In this document: in pieces, positions 3,357 to 52,105 of the stretch
Numbering within the stretch: position 1 is the stretch's first letter
How the letters are laid out: each line of letters opens with the position of its first letter
Origin: an uncultured bacterium
GTDB taxonomy: Bacteria > Desulfobacterota_D > UBA1144
Length of the DNA: 64,000 nucleotides
Assembly (NCBI GenBank): GCA_913050245.1
Contig: CAJWZJ010000001.1
Location: 118,617 to 182,616, forward strand
Direction of reading: 5' to 3'
Position numbers and translations under genes: made by a program
The notes under the pieces: generated by a model
Database searches by the model: none
Told to the model about the DNA's origin: nothing
What the model saw: only the letters and a program-made list of their open reading frames with translations

Positions 3357-4430
3357 CTAAGTATAAGATCTCATCACCCTTTTACTTATTCCACACACAA
3401 TATCATACGGAATCGTATTGATAGTTGATGCCAACATTGAAGCAGATTGTAAATTATCATCAAAAATAACTATTTTTTGCCCCACTCTAATATTTTTGAT
3501 GTTTGTAATATCTATCATCGTCAAATCCATACATACTCTACCTAAAATCTTACATTTCTTTCCTTTGCAATATACATAACCTTTATTCGATAATGCCCTA
3601 GGTAAACCATCAGCATATCCTATTGGAATAACTCCTATGACCATCTTCTTTTTGGATACAAAAGTTCTACCATAACTTACACTATCACCTTTTTTTAATA
3701 CGCGAATTTTAATAATTTTTGATTCAAGTGTCATAGCTGGTTTAAGTTTTCTTTCACTAGAAAGACCGTATAAAAAAAGTCCCGGTCTTACAGTATTAAA
3801 AATTTGGCTATCATAATTCAATATTCCTGAACTATTTGATGCATGAATAAATTTTATATTAAAACCTTTTTCCTTAAAGGATTTAACTACTGATTCAAAG
3901 CATTTTATTTGTTTTTTGGTAAATGAAGAATTTTTTTTATCTGCTTCTGCAAGGTGGGTATATATACCTTCAATTATTAAATTTTTATTATTAGAAATTT
4001 TTTTAATAGCTTTATCTACTTCATCAATTGAAATACCTAATCTATTCATTCCCGTATCAACTTTTAGATGAAACTTTATTTTTTTTAAATCTAAAGAAGC
4101 TAAAAAGCTGATTTGATCATAATCGTAAACCGTAAACATTATATTCAGTTTAATAGCCTTTATAATTTCATCATCATCAATAGATCCAAGAATAAGAATT
4201 TTTTTTCTTATTTTATTATTTTTTAATTCTAGTGCTTCATCCAAATTAGCAACCCCAAGATAAGACACTTCCTTTCTTTCAAGAAATTTTGATATTTCGA
4301 TTGCTCCATGTCCATATGCATTTGCCTTAACTATTGCAATGATATTCTTATCTTTTGCGTAATTGTTAATTAGAAGTGAATAATTGTTTATAAGACTAGA
4401 GGTTTTAATTTTGGCTGTAGTAGCACCCAT
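3357..4430 (-). CDS. alr: Alanine racemase
   Basis: The PLP-binding motif AIVKANAYGHG is present. The 357-aa product has typical Alr architecture. Confidence 0.85.
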   Translation of the reverse strand: MGATTAKIKTSSLINNYSLLINNYAKDKNIIAIVKANAYGHGAIEISKFLERKEVSYLGVANLDEALELKNNKIRKKILILGSIDDDEIIKAIKLNIMFTVYDYDQISFLASLDLKKIKFHLKVDTGMNRLGISIDEVDKAIKKISNNKNLIIEGIYTHLAEADKKNSSFTKKQIKCFESVVKSFKEKGFNIKFIHASNSSGILNYDSQIFNTVRPGLFLYGLSSERKLKPAMTLESKIIKIRVLKKGDSVSYGRTFVSKKKMVIGVIPIGYADGLPRALSNKGYVYCKGKKCKILGRVCMDLTMIDITNIKNIRVGQKIVIFDDNLQSASMLASTINTIPYDIVCGISKRVMRSYT

Positions 4431-15509: not shown

Positions 15510-17459
15510 TTAAATTTCTTCTATTTTATTCTCGTCATTAATTGATAGAGTTAAGGCTAATTCATGAAAATTATTAAGATTCGCTTTATGTCCTACACTG
15601 ATATATTTTATTTTAAATTTATTAAGTAATTCATATGCGTTCTTCTCGTTATTCTCATCTAATGCACTTGTAGATTCATCAAGTATCACAAATTTAGGCT
15701 TATTTAAAAGTATTCTAACAAAGCCAAGTCTTTGCTGTTCTCCAACAGAAAGTAATCTTGACCAATCTTTAACAGAATCAAGTCCATGGTCTTTAATTAG
15801 ATGTTCTAATGACAAGCTATTTAAGGCTTCGGTTATCTCTTGAATTGAGAATTCACCTTTAGATTTAGGGTAACAAATTTGTTCTTCTAATGTCCCTAGA
15901 TTCATATAAGGCTTTTGTGGGAGGAACATAATATTTGTATAATCAGGTTTAAAAACTTTACCTTTACCAAAAGTCCACAAACCGGCAATTGACCTCAATA
16001 GAGAGCTTTTACCAACACCACTCTGACCTCTAATCAATAAATTTTTATCTTTCAAGTCAAAATTCAAATTACTGATCAAGTATTTATCTGTTCCAGGAGT
16101 CTTGATAAATAAATTTTTGACAGAAATATTATTTGATGTTTCGTACTGAATTGATTCATCAGACTTGTTACTGATCAATGGAACTTCATTAAGGGATTTA
16201 TCAAAGTTTCCTAATCTAAATATACTAGCTGAAAAAGAAGAGATTTTTTCAATTTGATTAGTCACAATTGATAAGGCACCAAAAACTTGAAAAAATGCAA
16301 TCCATGCTTGAGTTATAGTTCCAAAATCAATCTCATTAGCAAAATAAAGTGGTGCAACTAATATATAGACTGGGAATCTCATCAGGTTTGAATACATAAA
16401 CTGAAATAGATCTATTATTGATTGCCAAATTATTAATAAATCAAAATTCTTCAATGCTTTATAAAAAATTTGAATAACATTCTTTTTTTCTTTCCTTTCA
16501 CCCCTATAGAAAGCAATTGATTCCGAATTATCTCTAACATGAACCATGCTATATCTAAAGTCAGCTTCTAGTCTAAGCTGATCATAATATATTCTTATCA
16601 TTCTTTTACCAGTTATTATGGCTATCCAAGTTCCAATAAATACATAAATAATTAAGCCTAAAGTTAGAGTCTTTGATATAGACCAAAGTATTGCGCTAAA
16701 TGAAACTACAGTTAAAACTGCATATAAAGTATCTATTAGAAAATCTAAAGTAACTGATGTAAAATGTTTTATATCTTCTGATATTCTTTGATCGGGGTTA
16801 TCAATATCCGCCATACCAGAATTAGAATCAAGTAAGTAATAGCATCTTTGATTGAAATATCTTGATATAAAGTTATCAGTTAGCCATTCTCTCCAATATC
16901 TTCCAAACTTAAGCCTTGTAAATCTATAAGAAGCAATCACTGGTACTGCGAAAAGAACAACTATTCCATATACCCAGAGAAATTCCCAAAAAACTTTTTC
17001 TTCCCTTGTATTAAGAGAAGTATCTATAAACCTAAAAATATAACTAAGAGCTACATTAAGACCAGTAACGGAGAAAAGCAATAAAAGTATAATAAATAGC
17101 AAAATCCAAGGTCTTAACTTGTCCTTAAGATTTTTTGAATTTATAAAAAAGAAATAGCTACTAGTTAATAAAATTGTAACTGATATATATATCAATTCCT
17201 TCTTTTTGAGGCTTTCAACATATGTTTTAAAGTTTGGAGCTAAATCATTTATAAAGCTTGGGAATAATATCTCAGTAATAAATCCCAAAAAAATTAAGAA
17301 AAAATGGCTAATCGAAATAACTGCCAGAATAGAGAGTATTACTAGTGAGAGTAGAATCCACCTAGAGTTTTTAATTTGAGTAGGAAAAAAGTATGGCTGA
17401 GCTGTATTAATAAATCTCTCTAAAAGCTCTTTGTTAAAATTAAATTTTTGATTACTCAT
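15510..17459 (-). CDS. Fused ABC transporter permease/ATPase, SbmA/BacA-YddA-like
   Basis: An N-terminal six-helix TM domain is followed by an ABC ATPase with Walker A GQSGVGKSS, signature LSVGEQQRLGF and Walker B VILDESTSALD. Confidence 0.75.
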   Translation of the reverse strand: MSNQKFNFNKELLERFINTAQPYFFPTQIKNSRWILLSLVILSILAVISISHFFLIFLGFITEILFPSFINDLAPNFKTYVESLKKKELIYISVTILLTSSYFFFINSKNLKDKLRPWILLFIILLLLFSVTGLNVALSYIFRFIDTSLNTREEKVFWEFLWVYGIVVLFAVPVIASYRFTRLKFGRYWREWLTDNFISRYFNQRCYYLLDSNSGMADIDNPDQRISEDIKHFTSVTLDFLIDTLYAVLTVVSFSAILWSISKTLTLGLIIYVFIGTWIAIITGKRMIRIYYDQLRLEADFRYSMVHVRDNSESIAFYRGERKEKKNVIQIFYKALKNFDLLIIWQSIIDLFQFMYSNLMRFPVYILVAPLYFANEIDFGTITQAWIAFFQVFGALSIVTNQIEKISSFSASIFRLGNFDKSLNEVPLISNKSDESIQYETSNNISVKNLFIKTPGTDKYLISNLNFDLKDKNLLIRGQSGVGKSSLLRSIAGLWTFGKGKVFKPDYTNIMFLPQKPYMNLGTLEEQICYPKSKGEFSIQEITEALNSLSLEHLIKDHGLDSVKDWSRLLSVGEQQRLGFVRILLNKPKFVILDESTSALDENNEKNAYELLNKFKIKYISVGHKANLNNFHELALTLSINDENKIEEI

Positions 17460-46976: not shown

Positions 46977-47180
46977 ATGCCAAACGGAAAAATAAAATGG
47001 TTTAATGCAAAAAAAGGCTATGGCTTCATTGAACCTGAAGATGGGAGCAAGGACGTATTTGTTCACATCACCGCTCTCGAAGCTGCTGGAATTGACAACC
47101 TTAACGAAGGTGATTCAGTATCATTCGAAATAGTTAGCGAGAGAGGAAAAGAAAAAGCTAGTGACTTAAAAACTTTATAA
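46977..47180 (+). CDS. cspA: Cold-shock protein (CspA family)
   Basis: The RNP1/RNP2 motifs [12 protein letters not shown] and VFVHITAL are present. A strong AAGGAGGG RBS lies upstream. Confidence 0.9.
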
Positions 47181-47420: not shown

Positions 47421-48365
47421 CTAAATTTTATTAAGAACAGTGTTTCTGATATCTTCTAAAGCATTAGGAAGGCTGAATAAATCATAGACCTGATGAGAAG
47501 AAATTTTAGTACATGTTTTTGAATACAGGCTTGATCTTTTTCCATTAACAATTATTTCAAAACTTGAACCTAACCCATTTCTAATTCTTTCAAGCTCTAA
47601 AGGGATTGTTGGATCATTTAGAGGAAATAATATGCTCATCATAACTGCAGAGCATTTTGAGCTGATTGCAGCCTCACAAATATCTTTAGAGGATAAATCA
47701 GTGCCTAAATAAACTGGATTCCAACCAGTTGAAACTGCAAGGCAGGCATTAACCAAGCAGCCTAGTTCAGCTTTTTGACCTTTGGGTGTGGCTACTAAAA
47801 CGAAGGGATTATTAGGATTATAATTCTTGAAGGATGAACGGTAATTTTCTAAATAATTTCTTATTACAGCATTTGCAAATCTTTCTTGTGATTTAGAAAT
47901 TTTATTATTCTTCCAAAGCCTCCCAACATGTTTAATGAATGGGACCATGAACTTATGAATAACGTATACTGCACCTAATTCTAAAGCAACATCATAAATA
48001 GCTTTTTCCATTTTTCTAAGATTATATTCATTTAAAGCTTCAATAGATATATCGAAATAAGGTCTGGCAGATGAAGTCAACTGTTCTAGCTCTGGATAAA
48101 CAACTGAATTATTTGTGGATTCTAACTCATTTACAAGATTTCTTAGCTCTTCGACTTTGTAAGAACCAATTTCTTGGAGGGTAAAACCAATTCTTTTTGC
48201 TTCAAGCATGAGTTGCAAAATTTCTAAGTCCTTATCTGTAAATCTTCTGCTGCCTCTTTCCGATCTTGAAATTTTTAAAATTTGATATCTTTCTTCCCAT
48301 TTTCTGATTTGGTCTGAGGTCAAACCAGTAATTTTACTAACTATTCTTATTGGATATTCTTTCAT
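47421..48365 (-). CDS. MerR-family transcriptional regulator with a C-terminal cobalamin-binding-like domain (CarH/LitR-like architecture)
   Basis: The N-terminal MerR HTH is IRIVSKITGLTSDQIRKWEE. The C-terminal Rossmann-like B12-binding segment is FVLVATPKGQKAELGCLVNA...VYLG, where the canonical E-x-H-x-x-G His is Ala. Confidence 0.7.
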   Translation of the reverse strand: MKEYPIRIVSKITGLTSDQIRKWEERYQILKISRSERGSRRFTDKDLEILQLMLEAKRIGFTLQEIGSYKVEELRNLVNELESTNNSVVYPELEQLTSSARPYFDISIEALNEYNLRKMEKAIYDVALELGAVYVIHKFMVPFIKHVGRLWKNNKISKSQERFANAVIRNYLENYRSSFKNYNPNNPFVLVATPKGQKAELGCLVNACLAVSTGWNPVYLGTDLSSKDICEAAISSKCSAVMMSILFPLNDPTIPLELERIRNGLGSSFEIIVNGKRSSLYSKTCTKISSHQVYDLFSLPNALEDIRNTVLNKI

Positions 48366-48398
48366 AATCTCTCTACCTATTTATTATATACACTAATC

Positions 48399-48422
48399 AT
48401 GTCATATATATGTCGAATGTCA
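48399..48422. promoter_or_regulatory. Three direct repeats ATGTCA / ATGTCG / ATGTCA between the MerR-family gene and the sigma-factor gene (candidate operator)
   Basis: Read from the sequence. They lie about 35 nt upstream of the regulator start and about 45 nt upstream of the sigma gene -35 element. Confidence 0.25.
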
Positions 48423-48466
48423 AGCATTATTTGTCTAACTAATATATATATTTTTTAAAAAAAAGC

Positions 48467-48495
48467 TGGACAAGTTTATAGACATTTGTTAATCT
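48467..48495 (+). promoter_or_regulatory. Sigma-70-like promoter (TGGACA-17 nt-TAATCT) for the sigma-factor gene
   Basis: Read from the sequence. A GAGGTG RBS lies 6 nt before the ATG. Confidence 0.35.
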
Positions 48496-48514
48496 AAAGA
48501 ATGTGAGGTGATTT

Positions 48515-49504
48515 ATGAAAAATATGAATGTGAATAAAAAGAATAATTTTCTTAATGCCAAAAACGGATACATGTTTAATGATAACTCAGGTCAAGAATT
48601 TGAGTCAGTAAAAGAATATTTCTCTAGGGCACTAGTTACTCCTTTACTTAGTGCTGTAGAGGAAAAAGAATTAGCTTCCAAAATTAAAAACTGCAAGGAA
48701 AAATTAACTACTCTAAAGAAGCAAAGTATAAAAAAAGGTCAGGAAGGAAAAATAAATTCTTTTATTAAGGTTTTTGAACAAAAGAAATCTCAACTTATTC
48801 AGGCATTCACAAAAGCCAATTTGAGATTAGTGGTTAGTATTGCGAAAAAATATAGTGGAAGAGGTTTACCACTTCTTGATCTCATTCAAGATGGAAATGT
48901 AGGGCTTATCAGAGCAGTTGAGAAATTTGATCATACTAAAGGTTTTAAATTTTCGACCTATGCTGCATGGTGGATTCATCAATCAATAACACGAAGTATA
49001 ATGGATCAATCTAGAACTATAAAAGTTCCTGTTTATATTCTTGAAAAATCAGCAAAAGTTTTTAAAGCTTTTAAATCACTTGAAGAGAAATTAAATAGAA
49101 AACCAGAATTTTATGAAATTGCTGAGATTGTAGATCTTCCAGAAGAAGCAGTAAAACAAATACTTGAATCTGGTAATGATACTTTCTCGTTGGATTCACC
49201 TATATCTAATGAAGAAAATGCAACCTTTGCCGATTTCTTAGAGGATGAAGCAGACAAGCCAGATGATCTAAGTGCTAAAATTGCTCTTTCACAATCTATT
49301 TCATCTGCTCTTACCCAACTTGATCAAAGAGAGAAAGAAATTATTGAAATGCGTTTCGGCTTCAATGGTTCTAATACATATACATTAGATCAGATCGGTA
49401 ATAAATATAATTTAACTAGGGAAAGAATTAGACAAATTGAGAAAAATGCCCTTAAAAAAATTCAAAGAATCGAAGGAGAAAAATTAAAAAGTTTTCTAAA
49501 CTAA
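48515..49504 (+). CDS. RNA polymerase sigma factor, sigma-70 group 1/2 type lacking region 1.1 (329 aa)
   Basis: Regions 2-4 match RpoD closely ([72 protein letters not shown]). It lacks the RpoH box, and its length is RpoS/SigA-like. Confidence 0.85.
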
Positions 49505-49666
49505 GGATATTGATATGACATTATTATATAATTCTGATATTAAAAAAATAAATTTAGGTATTTTAAACAAGCTAAAAAAGCCTATTAAAAGGAAGACATC
49601 TGTTTTGACTAATAGAAAAAAAATTAATACATCTACAAGAATTTTGTTAATGTATTAATATATTTT

Positions 49667-51058
49667 ATGCATTCTTTTAGCTTTCAGTCTCAATTTAAAA
49701 CTACCAAAGCTAAATTATTTGATTGGCATAAAAAAACTTTTGCTCTTGAAAGATTAACTCCCCCTTGGGAATCCATAAAAGTAAAAGAAAGAATTTACGA
49801 GGGAAATAATTTTATAGATGGTGGAAGAATCAGGCTTCAGCATGAATTAATTCCTTTGATAAAATTAAACTGGAATTTAATCCATAAAAATTATAGTGAA
49901 GGTAATCATTTTACTGATTATATGATAAAAGGCCCTTTTAAATATTGGGAACATCAACATATTTTTGAAGATTCTGGTGATAGTTGCTCCTTGATAGATG
50001 ATATCAAGTTTGATTTCTTTACATCAAATAAAATGATTGCAGAAAAGATTAAATATAAGCTTCATAAATCTTTTCATTATAGACACAAAATTTTAAAGAG
50101 AGATATCGAGGATGAAAATAGAAATCAATTTCATGAAAAGCTAGTTCTCATAACTGGGGGTGATGGTATGATAGGTTCACATCTCATACCTATGTTGAAT
50201 TCAATGGGATATGGGATAGTTCAATTAAAATTTTCAGATAATTTATGTGAAACCAAGCATCATGATTTTTATAAAATAAGCTGGAATCCTTATAAAGATC
50301 ACTTACCTATTTTACCAAAAGAAATATCAGAAAAAATTAAATTTGGTATAAATCTGTCAGGAGAAAATATTTTAGGGCTATATACTGAAAATAAAAAAAA
50401 TAAAATCAGAGAAAGTAGAATAATATCTACGAACTCTCTTAAGATTTTTTTGGAAAAGAACAATATCTCTTTAGAATCTATGATTCATGCTTCAGCGACA
50501 GGTTATTATGGAAATAATATGAACACTAATCTTGATGAGTCCACTCCTAAGGGTTCAGGGTTTTTGTCTGATACCACGGAAGAATGGGAGTATTATCAAA
50601 ATCATTTTAGTAGCTTATCAAATAGAGTTATTAATTTAAGAATTGGTGCAGTATTATCTATAAAAGGTGGTTTTTTGAAAAATATATATAGACCATATAT
50701 GTTTGGATTAGGAATTGGAATAGATTCAAACAATTATGTTAGTCACATATCAATCGAAGATTTAGTGAGGGCAATATGTTTTATAATGAAAAATGATAAA
50801 TTATCAGGTGTTATTAATGCAGTTTCACCTAATCCTATCAAAATGTCTGATATCTTCAATGATTTAAATAATGTATTAAAACCATTAATTAATTTTAAAA
50901 TTTCTGAAAGGTTGGTTGGAAAATTTATAGGTGAGATTGGAAAGAGTCTTGCTTTATCAAATCAAAACATCATACCAAAAAAGTTACTGAATAATAATTT
51001 TATTTTTTTAAACAATCTATTTATTAAGTCATTAAAAAATGAATTTGGTCAGGATTAA
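49667..51058 (+). CDS. Fusion protein: an N-terminal SRPBCC-like domain joined to a TIGR01777/YfcH-type NAD-dependent epimerase with a DUF1731 C-terminus
   Basis: The Rossmann motif LITGGDGMIGSHL lies at residue about 160. A roughly 150-aa domain with SRPBCC-like character precedes it. Length is 463 aa. Confidence 0.6.
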   Translation: MHSFSFQSQFKTTKAKLFDWHKKTFALERLTPPWESIKVKERIYEGNNFIDGGRIRLQHELIPLIKLNWNLIHKNYSEGNHFTDYMIKGPFKYWEHQHIFEDSGDSCSLIDDIKFDFFTSNKMIAEKIKYKLHKSFHYRHKILKRDIEDENRNQFHEKLVLITGGDGMIGSHLIPMLNSMGYGIVQLKFSDNLCETKHHDFYKISWNPYKDHLPILPKEISEKIKFGINLSGENILGLYTENKKNKIRESRIISTNSLKIFLEKNNISLESMIHASATGYYGNNMNTNLDESTPKGSGFLSDTTEEWEYYQNHFSSLSNRVINLRIGAVLSIKGGFLKNIYRPYMFGLGIGIDSNNYVSHISIEDLVRAICFIMKNDKLSGVINAVSPNPIKMSDIFNDLNNVLKPLINFKISERLVGKFIGEIGKSLALSNQNIIPKKLLNNNFIFLNNLFIKSLKNEFGQD

Positions 51059-51686
51059 TAATATGAAAATTGGATCAACAAGAAAGGACTATAAAATTAA
51101 GAAGAAAATAATAATAAAGGACAACAACCCAATTCTAACTTTTGATTATTGGTATAAAAAGGCATCAAAAACCGTATCTGAACCAAATGCTTTTTGTCTT
51201 TCGACTATTAGTGGCAATAATGCTGAATCAAGGATGATGCTTTTAAAAGATTATGGAAATAAATTTACTTTTTTTACTAATATTAAAAGTAGAAAGGGAA
51301 GTCAGATTCTGAAAACTAAAAAGTGTTCTATGAATTTTTGGTGGAAAGAAATACATCAACAAGTAAGAATTTCTGGAAATATTTCTAAATTGCAGAATAA
51401 ATTAACAATGGATTATTTTTATAGTAGGCCTAAGGAAAGTCAAATAGCTGCACTTATTTCTAATCAAAGCCGTGTTATTAAATCATATGACATTTTAATT
51501 AAAAGATATAAAAATTTTATTAAAGAATATAAGAACAAAGAAGTACCCTTCCCTAGCAATTGGGTAGGTTTTGAAATAAATCCTCTTAAATTTGAATTCT
51601 GGCAAGGTGGTGAATTTAGATTGCATCAGAGAGTAGAATTTATTAAAGTAGGTAAGAAATGGAAAAAGAATTTACTGGCACCCTAA
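51039..51686 (+). CDS. pdxH: Pyridoxamine 5'-phosphate oxidase
   Basis: The C-terminal signature WVGFEINPLKFEFWQGGEFRLHQR and the FMN-binding region are present. The alternative ATG at 51063 is possible. Confidence 0.85.
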   Translation: MNLVRINNMKIGSTRKDYKIKKKIIIKDNNPILTFDYWYKKASKTVSEPNAFCLSTISGNNAESRMMLLKDYGNKFTFFTNIKSRKGSQILKTKKCSMNFWWKEIHQQVRISGNISKLQNKLTMDYFYSRPKESQIAALISNQSRVIKSYDILIKRYKNFIKEYKNKEVPFPSNWVGFEINPLKFEFWQGGEFRLHQRVEFIKVGKKWKKNLLAP

Positions 51687-52105
51687 AAATCAAGCCAAGA
51701 TTCTATGTTGACAAAGAATGTAATTGGTTTCAAGACGGTAAGCCAATTACACATCAAAGAATATATAAATACAATTATGAAAATCTAAAATACAAAGATG
51801 GTCTTTTCTTTATTCAAGAAGGTAAATCAAGGGCTTACATATATTTTGAAGATAAACCATTCATTATAAAAAGTGTAACCTATATGCAAAGCAAAATTCT
51901 TATTACATTAAATGATTTCACCGAGGAAGTTTTAGATTTAGAGTCTCTATATTTTATGGAGAACATACCTTACTGTTTAGTAAAAAATAAAGAATTTGAA
52001 GCAAAATTTTCTAGGCCTGCTTTATATCAACTTTCGAGGGAAATCAAAGAGAATAATGGTAATTTTTTTCTTTTTGATAAGTCTATAGACTTTAGATATC
52101 CATAA
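51659..52105 (+). CDS. Hypothetical protein (148 aa)
   Basis: Only the ORF supports it. It overlaps pdxH by 28 nt and no motif was recognised. Confidence 0.4.
   Translation: MEKEFTGTLKIKPRFYVDKECNWFQDGKPITHQRIYKYNYENLKYKDGLFFIQEGKSRAYIYFEDKPFIIKSVTYMQSKILITLNDFTEEVLDLESLYFMENIPYCLVKNKEFEAKFSRPALYQLSREIKENNGNFFLFDKSIDFRYP

Follow-up and report, generated by a model that had tools for sequence, protein, structure and literature searches.

A CarH/LitR-lineage regulator divergently paired with a group 2-type sigma factor in marine Dadabacteria, with a predicted B12-independent input

In the 64,000-nucleotide stretch of bacterial DNA analyzed here (the window; G+C content, 29%), an open reading frame (ORF) for a CarH/LitR-type regulator of the MerR family (314 amino acids; 47421 to 48365, minus strand) lies divergent from an ORF for a sigma factor (329 amino acids; 48515 to 49504, plus strand), across a gap of exactly 149 bp. 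Both ORFs and the gap had been described in an initial annotation made from the sequence, and their coordinates and lengths were borne out. The gene pair, the gap, the repeats within it, and the promoter are real and nonrandom. With moderate confidence, we propose that the regulator is a B12-independent derivative of CarH that represses its own promoter and that of an operon led by a group 2-type sigma factor, by way of TnGACA repeats. We infer the DNA binding, the repression, the organization of the operon, and the type of signal. As far as sequence comparison can tell, there is good support for the lineage assignment and for the regulator-to-sigma logic, while a specific light or B12 input is not supported for the marine clade, because the function-defining residues are missing throughout it.

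The closest matches of the window are metagenome-assembled genomes from ocean metagenomes (Tara and others) labelled Candidatus Dadabacteria UBA1144, Deltaproteobacteria TMED58, or Thermodesulfobacteriota. Genomes of marine pelagic Dadabacteria are ∼1.2 Mb in size, >96% coding, and nearly paralog free, and one of their clades dwells in the photic zone and possesses proteorhodopsin (PMC8115339).

The regulator and its cobalamin-binding domain

Pfam matches to MerR_1 (2e-14, residues 4 to 66) and B12-binding_2 (3.6e-5, residues 121 to 171) agree with the MerR helix-turn-helix and C-terminal B12-binding-like domain recognized at the outset. The protein is composed of a winged helix-turn-helix (wHTH) DNA-binding domain (residues 1 to 70; 48156 to 48365, minus strand), which contains the MerR_1 match, followed by a linker, a four-helix-bundle subdomain (residues ∼101 to 180; 47826 to 48065, minus strand) that matches CarH of Thermus thermophilus (TtCarH) in a hidden Markov model (HMM) alignment, and a Rossmann subdomain (residues ∼185 to 314; 47424 to 47813, minus strand) with a degenerate B12 motif. 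The recognition helix, IRKWEERY (residues 20 to 27), is invariant in the clade and differs by one Arg-to-Glu replacement from RxWERRY, a motif that CarH and CarA have in common (PMC9304148).

A profile built from the regulator and 15 close homologs matched TtCarH (5c8d and 3whp), the cobalamin-binding protein 1y80, and MetH. AlphaFold2 (AF2) models had predicted local distance difference test (pLDDT) scores of 92.7 (mixed multiple-sequence alignment) and 84.9 (clade-only alignment), and the top Foldseek match of both was TtCarH, on whose B12 domain they superimposed with template modeling (TM) scores of 0.82 to 0.86 and root mean square deviations of 2.5 to 3.4 Å over ∼200 residues. The predicted Rossmann module is complete (strands at residues 188 to 194, 216 to 224, 240 to 244, 270 to 274, and 291 to 293), so that the B12-type fold on which the initial annotation depended is present in the models. 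The NCBIfam CarH model gave 76.6 bits, against a cutoff of 400. Sequence profile, fold, recognition helix, and the grammar of its candidate operator place the regulator in the CarH/LitR lineage. Of the CarH/LitR architecture first assigned to it, the lineage therefore stands, but the cobalamin-ligating residues are gone. One metagenomic homolog (P0016) has residues 180 to 235 swapped for an unrelated Cys-rich segment with a match to Pfam PF05187 and is probably an assembly chimera.

The canonical B12 motif reads D/ExHx2G-x41-SxT/V-x22-27-GG (PMC9304148, PMC8156234); its His is the lower axial ligand, and a second motif, Wx9EH, which caps the adenosyl group, is crucial for photoreceptor activity (PMC9304148). 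In the HMM alignment, the regulator retains the Trp and Glu of the latter (W151 for W131 and E161 for E141 of TtCarH), while H132 is replaced by K152, H142 by R162, and the lower axial H177 by A199. The Wx9EH motif is thus not intact as in CarH but reads W151-x9-E161-R162 (Wx9ER). The B12 motif reads Q197-K-A199-E-L-G202 (QKAELG, compared with ERHEIG in TtCarH), S244-I-L (SIL in place of SxT/V), and N274-G275 (NG in place of GG) and so departs from the canonical His-ligand form. Two features that define a CarH photoreceptor are thus lacking. The replacements of the lower axial His by Ala, the Wx9EH His by Arg, the Trp-adjacent His by Lys, and GG by NG, found in all orthologs, argue against the global light/B12 switch that had been predicted for this locus.

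The Wx9ER, QKAELG, and NG states occur in 16 of 16 close homologs (61 to 99% identity) and in every clade locus (∼30 orthologs). Among relatives found by HMM search (6711 matches, E values up to 1e-3), Wx9EH, QxHxxG, and GG are kept in practically all of the top 150 cluster representatives and in ∼70 loci (∼30% identity), as well as in the nearest nonmarine relatives near a sigma factor gene (loci L021, L023, and L031). Because the clade shares the changes and its relatives keep the three motifs, loss of the histidines is, on this comparison, derived and specific to the marine clade.

As synonymous divergence (dS) was saturated even between 91%-identical orthologs, nonsynonymous divergence (dN) by domain was used instead of dN/dS. 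Between such orthologs, dN was 0.04 to 0.05 for the four-helix bundle, 0.03 to 0.06 for the DNA-binding domain, and 0.07 to 0.11 for the Rossmann subdomain, i.e., the bundle is constrained as strongly as the DNA-binding domain. Judged by these values, the histidine loss is not decay, and the B12-type domain is under strong purifying selection. With the lower axial His and both photochemistry histidines gone while dN is low, a canonical adenosylcobalamin (AdoCbl)/light input to the regulator is unlikely.

The sigma factor and the intergenic spacer

The 329-amino-acid ORF matches Pfam Sigma70 r2, r3, and r4. Regions 1.2, 2, 3, and 4 are present, and the short, nonacidic N terminus is without the acidic region 1.1, as first annotated. 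The further statement that regions 2 to 4 are nearly identical to RpoD overestimated the similarity: identity over these regions is 43% to Escherichia coli RpoD (43.2%) and 41% to RpoS, and the best NCBIfam models, RpoD and RpoS, were all below their cutoffs.

A second sigma factor of 376 to 377 amino acids (P0223, P0227, and P0237) is 60% identical to that of the window and is more RpoD-like. P0223 scored 346 bits on the RpoD model PRK05658, compared with 308 for the window sigma factor, and is 49.6% rather than 43.2% identical to E. coli RpoD; the N terminus of the second sigma factor also contains an acidic stretch of the kind found in region 1.1. Its gene is located among housekeeping genes, between genes for a GHMP kinase and a luciferase-like monooxygenase, with ATP synthase genes nearby and no MerR neighbor. 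In a sister lineage, P0223 (778 to 785 kb) and the orthologous regulator-sigma pair (222 to 226 kb) share the 1,045,770-bp contig Ga0222719_10000001, on which the regulator and sigma factor are 76% and 73% identical, respectively, to those of the window. The housekeeping interpretation of the window sigma factor was rejected, since the contig that carries the pair also encodes a paralog that is longer, more RpoD-like, and acidic at its N terminus. The suggestion of an alternative or secondary sigma factor is upheld by this contig, which supplies the second rpoD-like gene on which that suggestion hinged.

The −10 and −35 recognition segments (including WWIHQxIx) are identical in the two sigma factors, as expected for a group 2 factor. 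In a coarse neighbor-joining tree with two or three references, all Dadabacteria-type sigma factors formed one clade (100% bootstrap) apart from RpoS, and regulator-adjacent sigma factors of Verrucomicrobiota formed a separate clade. Like group 2 factors (E. coli RpoS, cyanobacterial SigB to SigE, and actinobacterial SigB), the window sigma factor comprises RpoD-like regions 1.2 to 4 without region 1.1 and has near-identical −10/−35 recognition segments, and its sister-lineage ortholog coexists with a separate primary-like sigma factor. Unlike them, it groups with the Dadabacteria primary-like sigma factor and not with RpoS, and it reaches no NCBIfam cutoff. On the evidence of the sister lineage, extended to the genome of the window, it is a group 2-type secondary paralog and not the housekeeping factor.

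The intergenic DNA was compared among 23 nonredundant orthologous spacers, whose regulators are 63 to 92% identical to that of the window. Against a background identity of 56%, 25 of 149 columns are invariant, of which 20 fall in four TnGACA-type motifs and 3 in the −10 element (TAnnnT) of the sigma factor gene. The promoter first proposed for this gene, TGGACA-17-TAATCT, is present on the plus strand at 48467 to 48495 (−35, 48467 to 48472; −10, 48490 to 48495) and carries two repeats that had been overlooked, namely, TGGACA itself and a TAGACA within the 17-bp spacer (48479 to 48484, plus strand). These repeats are 12 bp apart in the window and 11 bp apart in sister lineages; T48467, both GACA cores, and T48490, A48491, and T48495 are invariant. 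Directly upstream of the −35 element, an A-tract (48457 to 48464, plus strand) resembling an UP element forms part of an A-run found in nearly all orthologs, with A48459 and A48464 invariant. In every ortholog, the promoter spacer measures 17 bp, and the sites are arranged as direct repeats and not as a dyad. The 17-bp spacer, near-consensus hexamers, and conserved A-tract together indicate a strong promoter, suited to repression and not in need of MerR-type activation.

On the regulator side, two clade-invariant repeats lie on the minus strand with a spacing of 21 bp: TCGACA (48411 to 48416), which in sister lineages aligns with the −35 element (TTGACA) of the regulator promoter, and TAGACA (48432 to 48437). 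The triple repeat ATGTCA-N5-ATGTCG-N1-ATGTCA reported previously is found exactly at 48399 to 48422, but only its central copy (48410 to 48415) is conserved beyond the subclade of the window; read on the minus strand, the subclade-restricted copies, ATGACA (48400 to 48405) and TTGACA (48418 to 48423), flank the conserved one. With one of three copies conserved outside the subclade, the triple repeat as a whole was rejected as the operator. On the minus strand, TTGACA-16-CATGAT is a candidate regulator promoter in the window. Compared with its closest relatives (loci L005 and L096), the window has an insertion of ∼8 bp in the stretch (48374 to 48398) that separates the regulator start codon from the repeats, and this insertion alters the spacing of this candidate promoter from TTGACA-N19-TATAAT in L005 to TTGACA-N16-CATGAT in the window.

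Characterized CarH operators are tandem 11-bp direct repeats of the form nnnnTnnACAn (PMC9304148). The spacer holds two TnGACA repeats per promoter, all invariant in the 23 orthologs, which is fewer than in known operators. The 64 kb contains two instances of GACA-N6-8-GACA, against 1.46 expected; both are inside the 149-bp gap, and one faces each gene. Neither this arrangement nor GACA-N16-18-GACA was found in the 64 kb outside the spacer, and the looser TnnACA-N5/6-TnnACA was not above chance in the 64 kb, its other matches being intragenic.

The pairing in other bacteria and the genes around it

The regulator-sigma pair is present in every marine-clade locus for which there is upstream sequence. 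As a comparison set, 73 nonclade regulator loci from species-representative genomes were examined for neighbors within 4 kb. A divergent upstream four-region RpoD/RpoS-like sigma factor is encoded in 14 of these, and an extracytoplasmic function (ECF) sigma factor is encoded immediately upstream in 9, Ignavibacteria loci among them, giving a sigma neighbor of either type in 23 of 73. Other nonclade neighbors include crtI-type oxidases (25 loci), fasciclin proteins (18 loci), and photolyases (10 loci). Short-chain dehydrogenases/reductases (SDRs) of the YfcH/DUF1731 type are encoded within 4 kb in 13 nonclade loci and 23 loci in all, which suggests that this SDR family is a conserved, uncharacterized member of light regulons.

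The 300 bp upstream of each CarH-like gene with intact B12 motifs (loci L012 to L084, from several phyla) was scanned for repeats. Upstream of 72 nonclade homologs, same-strand TnnACA pairs are most frequent at a spacing of 11, with 97 pairs against an expectation of 1.1; smaller peaks follow at 22 and 33, and the arrays face the adjoining sigma or ECF sigma factor gene. Loci of Verrucomicrobiota, Acidobacteriota, Gemmatimonadota, and Ignavibacteria also show both the pairing and the 11-bp repeats. From the crtI, photolyase, and fasciclin neighborhoods, the wider family is predicted to consist of light-response regulators, with sigma factor gating as a common output. No report of a CarH/LitR regulator paired with a non-ECF sigma factor was found in the literature searched, a search that was incomplete and does not prove novelty.

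The window regulator shares several features with the AdoCbl-dependent photoreceptor repressors CarH of T. thermophilus, Myxococcus xanthus, and Bacillus megaterium: a MerR-type wHTH domain with an RxWE(R/K)RY-type helix, a four-helix bundle joined to a Rossmann fold, and the Trp and Glu of Wx9EH. Its candidate operator resembles theirs in having direct TnnACA repeats, spaced by roughly one turn of the helix, across the −35 region. It differs from them in the change of its histidine ligands to Ala, Arg, and Lys and of GG to NG, in having two repeats per promoter where CarH has three or four, and in its target, which is a sigma factor operon and not carotenoid genes. CarA of M. xanthus keeps the B12-motif His and the EH, is without the Trp of Wx9EH, and needs the antirepressor CarS (PMC9304148). 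As a CarH-derived, B12-independent repressor that has kept its B12-type domain, CarA is a precedent for loss of the cofactor with retention of the fold. The pattern is reversed in the window regulator, which keeps the Trp and loses both histidines, and the two losses are phylogenetically independent. No CarS-like partner of the window regulator was identified, although no search aimed at one was made.

The closest parallel in layout is found in Streptomyces, where AdoB12-LitR controls the bidirectional litR/litS promoters and sigma-LitS then transcribes crt genes (PMC11519972). Both systems have a divergent regulator/sigma pair (with promoter-like elements in both directions in the 149-bp spacer of the window) and a sigma factor gated by a CarH/LitR-type regulator, which then drives downstream genes, as we propose for the window. 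LitS, however, is an ECF sigma factor, whereas the window partner is a four-region RpoD-like, group 2-type factor, and the window regulator is without B12 ligands. Since Streptomyces LitR-LitS already gates a sigma factor (PMC11519972), the departure from the usual carotenoid-operon control claimed in the initial annotation does not hold; with this precedent, the locus represents a variation on an established light-switch layout, not a new type of system. Class II LitR proteins (PplR1/PmlR2 of Pseudomonas) have a four-helix bundle only, do not bind B12, and are released by a LOV partner protein (PMC9758184). Their partner-protein signaling without B12 is a plausible working model for the window regulator, which differs in keeping a complete Rossmann module and in having no adjoining LOV gene.

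Downstream of the sigma factor gene, a very basic 47-amino-acid ORF (49515 to 49658, plus strand) starts 10 nucleotides past the sigma stop codon and has its own Shine-Dalgarno sequence. The microprotein is 47 to 51 amino acids long across the clade (it is also found in L001, at 3705 to 3857, and in >30 other clade loci) and consists of an N terminus reading MTFHI or MTI.., a variable Lys/Arg-rich middle, and a C terminus (INTSTRILLMY/IRRNTRNLLLF) that is conserved in every marine-clade locus. It had no Pfam match and was not found in nonclade loci. One possible role is that of a cofactor for the sigma factor or the regulator. The gene for a YfcH/TIGR01777-DUF1731 SDR (49667 to 51058, plus strand) begins 8 nucleotides after this ORF, and its product has an unannotated N-terminal extension of 150 amino acids and, as its second-best NCBIfam match, the cyanobacterial thylakoid protein ThyD. 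Genes for a PdxH-like pyridoxine 5′-phosphate (PNP) oxidase (51039 to 51686, plus strand) and a 148-amino-acid protein (51659 to 52105, plus strand) follow, with overlaps among the last three genes. No convincing terminator was found between the sigma factor gene and the downstream genes. Given this and the tight gaps and overlaps, the regulator probably controls 48515 to 52105 as a single five-gene unit.

Elsewhere in the window, a cold shock domain gene (46977 to 47180, plus strand) adjoins the 3′ end of the regulator gene. It is present in one copy in the window and in L001 and as a tandem duplicate in L002 and L003 (6017 to 6555), despite the reported scarcity of paralogs in this lineage. 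A 649-amino-acid ABC transporter (15510 to 17459, minus strand) has ABC_membrane_2 and SbmA_BacA domains, the architecture of the mycobacterial cobalamin importer Rv1819c, and it could have a bearing on B12 uptake by the organism. The only Rfam elements in the 64 kb were three tRNAs, no cobalamin riboswitch being found, and a tblastn search of the window found no crtI, photolyase, fasciclin, ECF sigma, or second sigma factor gene.

Mechanism, alternatives, and significance

In the mechanism that we propose, the regulator would bind the TnGACA repeats at the two divergent promoters within the 149-bp spacer. On the sigma side, where the repeats cover the −35 element and the 17-bp spacer, bound regulator would block RNA polymerase; on the other side, it would autoregulate its own promoter. 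The controlled transcript would encode the sigma factor and then, probably, the 47-amino-acid microprotein, the YfcH-like SDR, the PdxH-like oxidase, and the 148-amino-acid protein. As the sigma factor heads this transcript, derepression would lead to expression of the operon genes and would also supply a second primary-like sigma factor. In related lineages, the same module with an intact AdoCbl pocket is presumably a light switch. In the marine clade, the cobalamin-ligating and photochemical histidines have been replaced while the domain was kept under strong constraint, and the input is for that reason most likely B12 independent, with the regulator forming an oligomer constitutively and being released through a partner protein or another ligand. 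The layout originally predicted, a sigma factor under a photoreceptor-like regulator, thus survives in its conserved and recurrent pairing and in the repeats over the sigma −35 element and spacer, but not in its light/B12 input.

Several observations weigh against this interpretation. Two of the four invariant motifs are −35 hexamers, and promoter function alone explains part of their conservation. The repeats are fewer per promoter than in characterized CarH operators, and their spacing is 12 bp in the subclade of the window and 21 bp on the regulator side. The second sigma factor is known from the sister lineage (regulator 76% identical) and not from the genome of the window itself. Some B12-binding Rossmann domains, those of base-off/His-off corrinoid proteins, have no His ligand, so the missing His is no proof of lost cobalamin binding, and two histidines of the four-helix bundle, H137 and H146, which all clade members have and their relatives lack, could be replacement ligands. 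Further, activation of litS by LitR in the light has been reported for Streptomyces (PMC11519972), and pure repression is therefore not guaranteed.

In one alternative, the regulator has remained a photoreceptor that depends on cobalamin but binds it noncanonically (base-on or His-off, or with His137 or His146 as axial ligand), and the pair is a true light/B12 switch, as first predicted. The fold persists, as do the Trp and Glu of Wx9E, conservation within the protein is highest in the four-helix bundle, which caps the upper ligand, the neighborhoods of relatives are light related (photolyase and crtI-type genes), and a photic-zone, proteorhodopsin-bearing clade exists among marine Dadabacteria (PMC8115339). 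We nevertheless consider this alternative unlikely: the counterparts of H177, H142, and H132 of TtCarH are all replaced, GG has become NG and SxT/V has become SxL, the 64 kb holds no cobalamin riboswitch, and, of the two motifs affected, one supplies the lower axial ligand and the other is crucial for photoreceptor activity (PMC9304148).

Somewhat less probable again is activation, or dual regulation, of the sigma promoter in the style of MerR or LitR in place of simple repression. Membership in the MerR family, activation of the litS promoter by Streptomyces LitR after illumination (PMC11519972), and the long spacer of the regulator promoter in L005-type loci, if read as TTGACA-N19-TATAAT, are consistent with it. 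The classical activators MerR, CueR, and ZntR, however, act at a dyad in a 19- to 20-bp spacer, whereas the sigma promoter has direct repeats and no dyad between its −35 and −10 elements, a spacer of the optimal 17 bp in all orthologs, near-consensus −35 and −10 elements, and an upstream A-tract; such a promoter requires no activation by distortion. Mere adjacency, with a constitutive or housekeeping sigma factor and motifs conserved only as promoter hexamers, we regard as very improbable. Two of the four invariant motifs do coincide with −35 elements, and synteny inside one lineage is weak evidence alone, but GACA at 48481 to 48484 and TAGACA at 48432 to 48437 are invariant without being promoter hexamers, the four other groups named above show the pairing and the 11-bp repeats as well, and a more RpoD-like sigma factor is encoded on the same sister-lineage contig. 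Repression by a B12-independent CarH derivative remains the interpretation that we favor.

CarH and LitR are models for B12-based light sensing and are widely used as optogenetic parts. The placing of a sigma factor, ECF or RpoD/RpoS-like, under a CarH-type regulator appears to be common, with a sigma neighbor in about one-third of the relatives sampled. We advance only tentatively the broader view that, in marine Dadabacteria, a CarH photoreceptor has been turned into a noncobalamin sensor that gates a group 2 sigma factor genome-wide and that gating of an RpoD-like sigma factor by a CarH-type regulator is a widespread design for light responses. If this were true, the design would span Verrucomicrobiota, Acidobacteriota, Gemmatimonadota, and Dadabacteria, and no description of it was found in the literature searched.

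Vitamin B12 is scarce in the marine habitat, and marine Dadabacteria would represent a second route to B12 independence, separate from that of the myxobacterial CarA. The His-less B12-type domain would then read a new ligand or partner, for which the 47-amino-acid microprotein is one candidate. The locus also provides CarH domains that naturally differ in having or lacking the histidines, through which the contribution of the fold beyond cobalamin ligation can be dissected. A nearly paralog-free genome of ∼1.2 Mb (PMC8115339) keeps a duplicate primary-like sigma factor together with a dedicated regulator, and we argue from this retention that the switch matters ecologically. It would be a genome-wide switch in a cosmopolitan, extremely streamlined ocean heterotroph.

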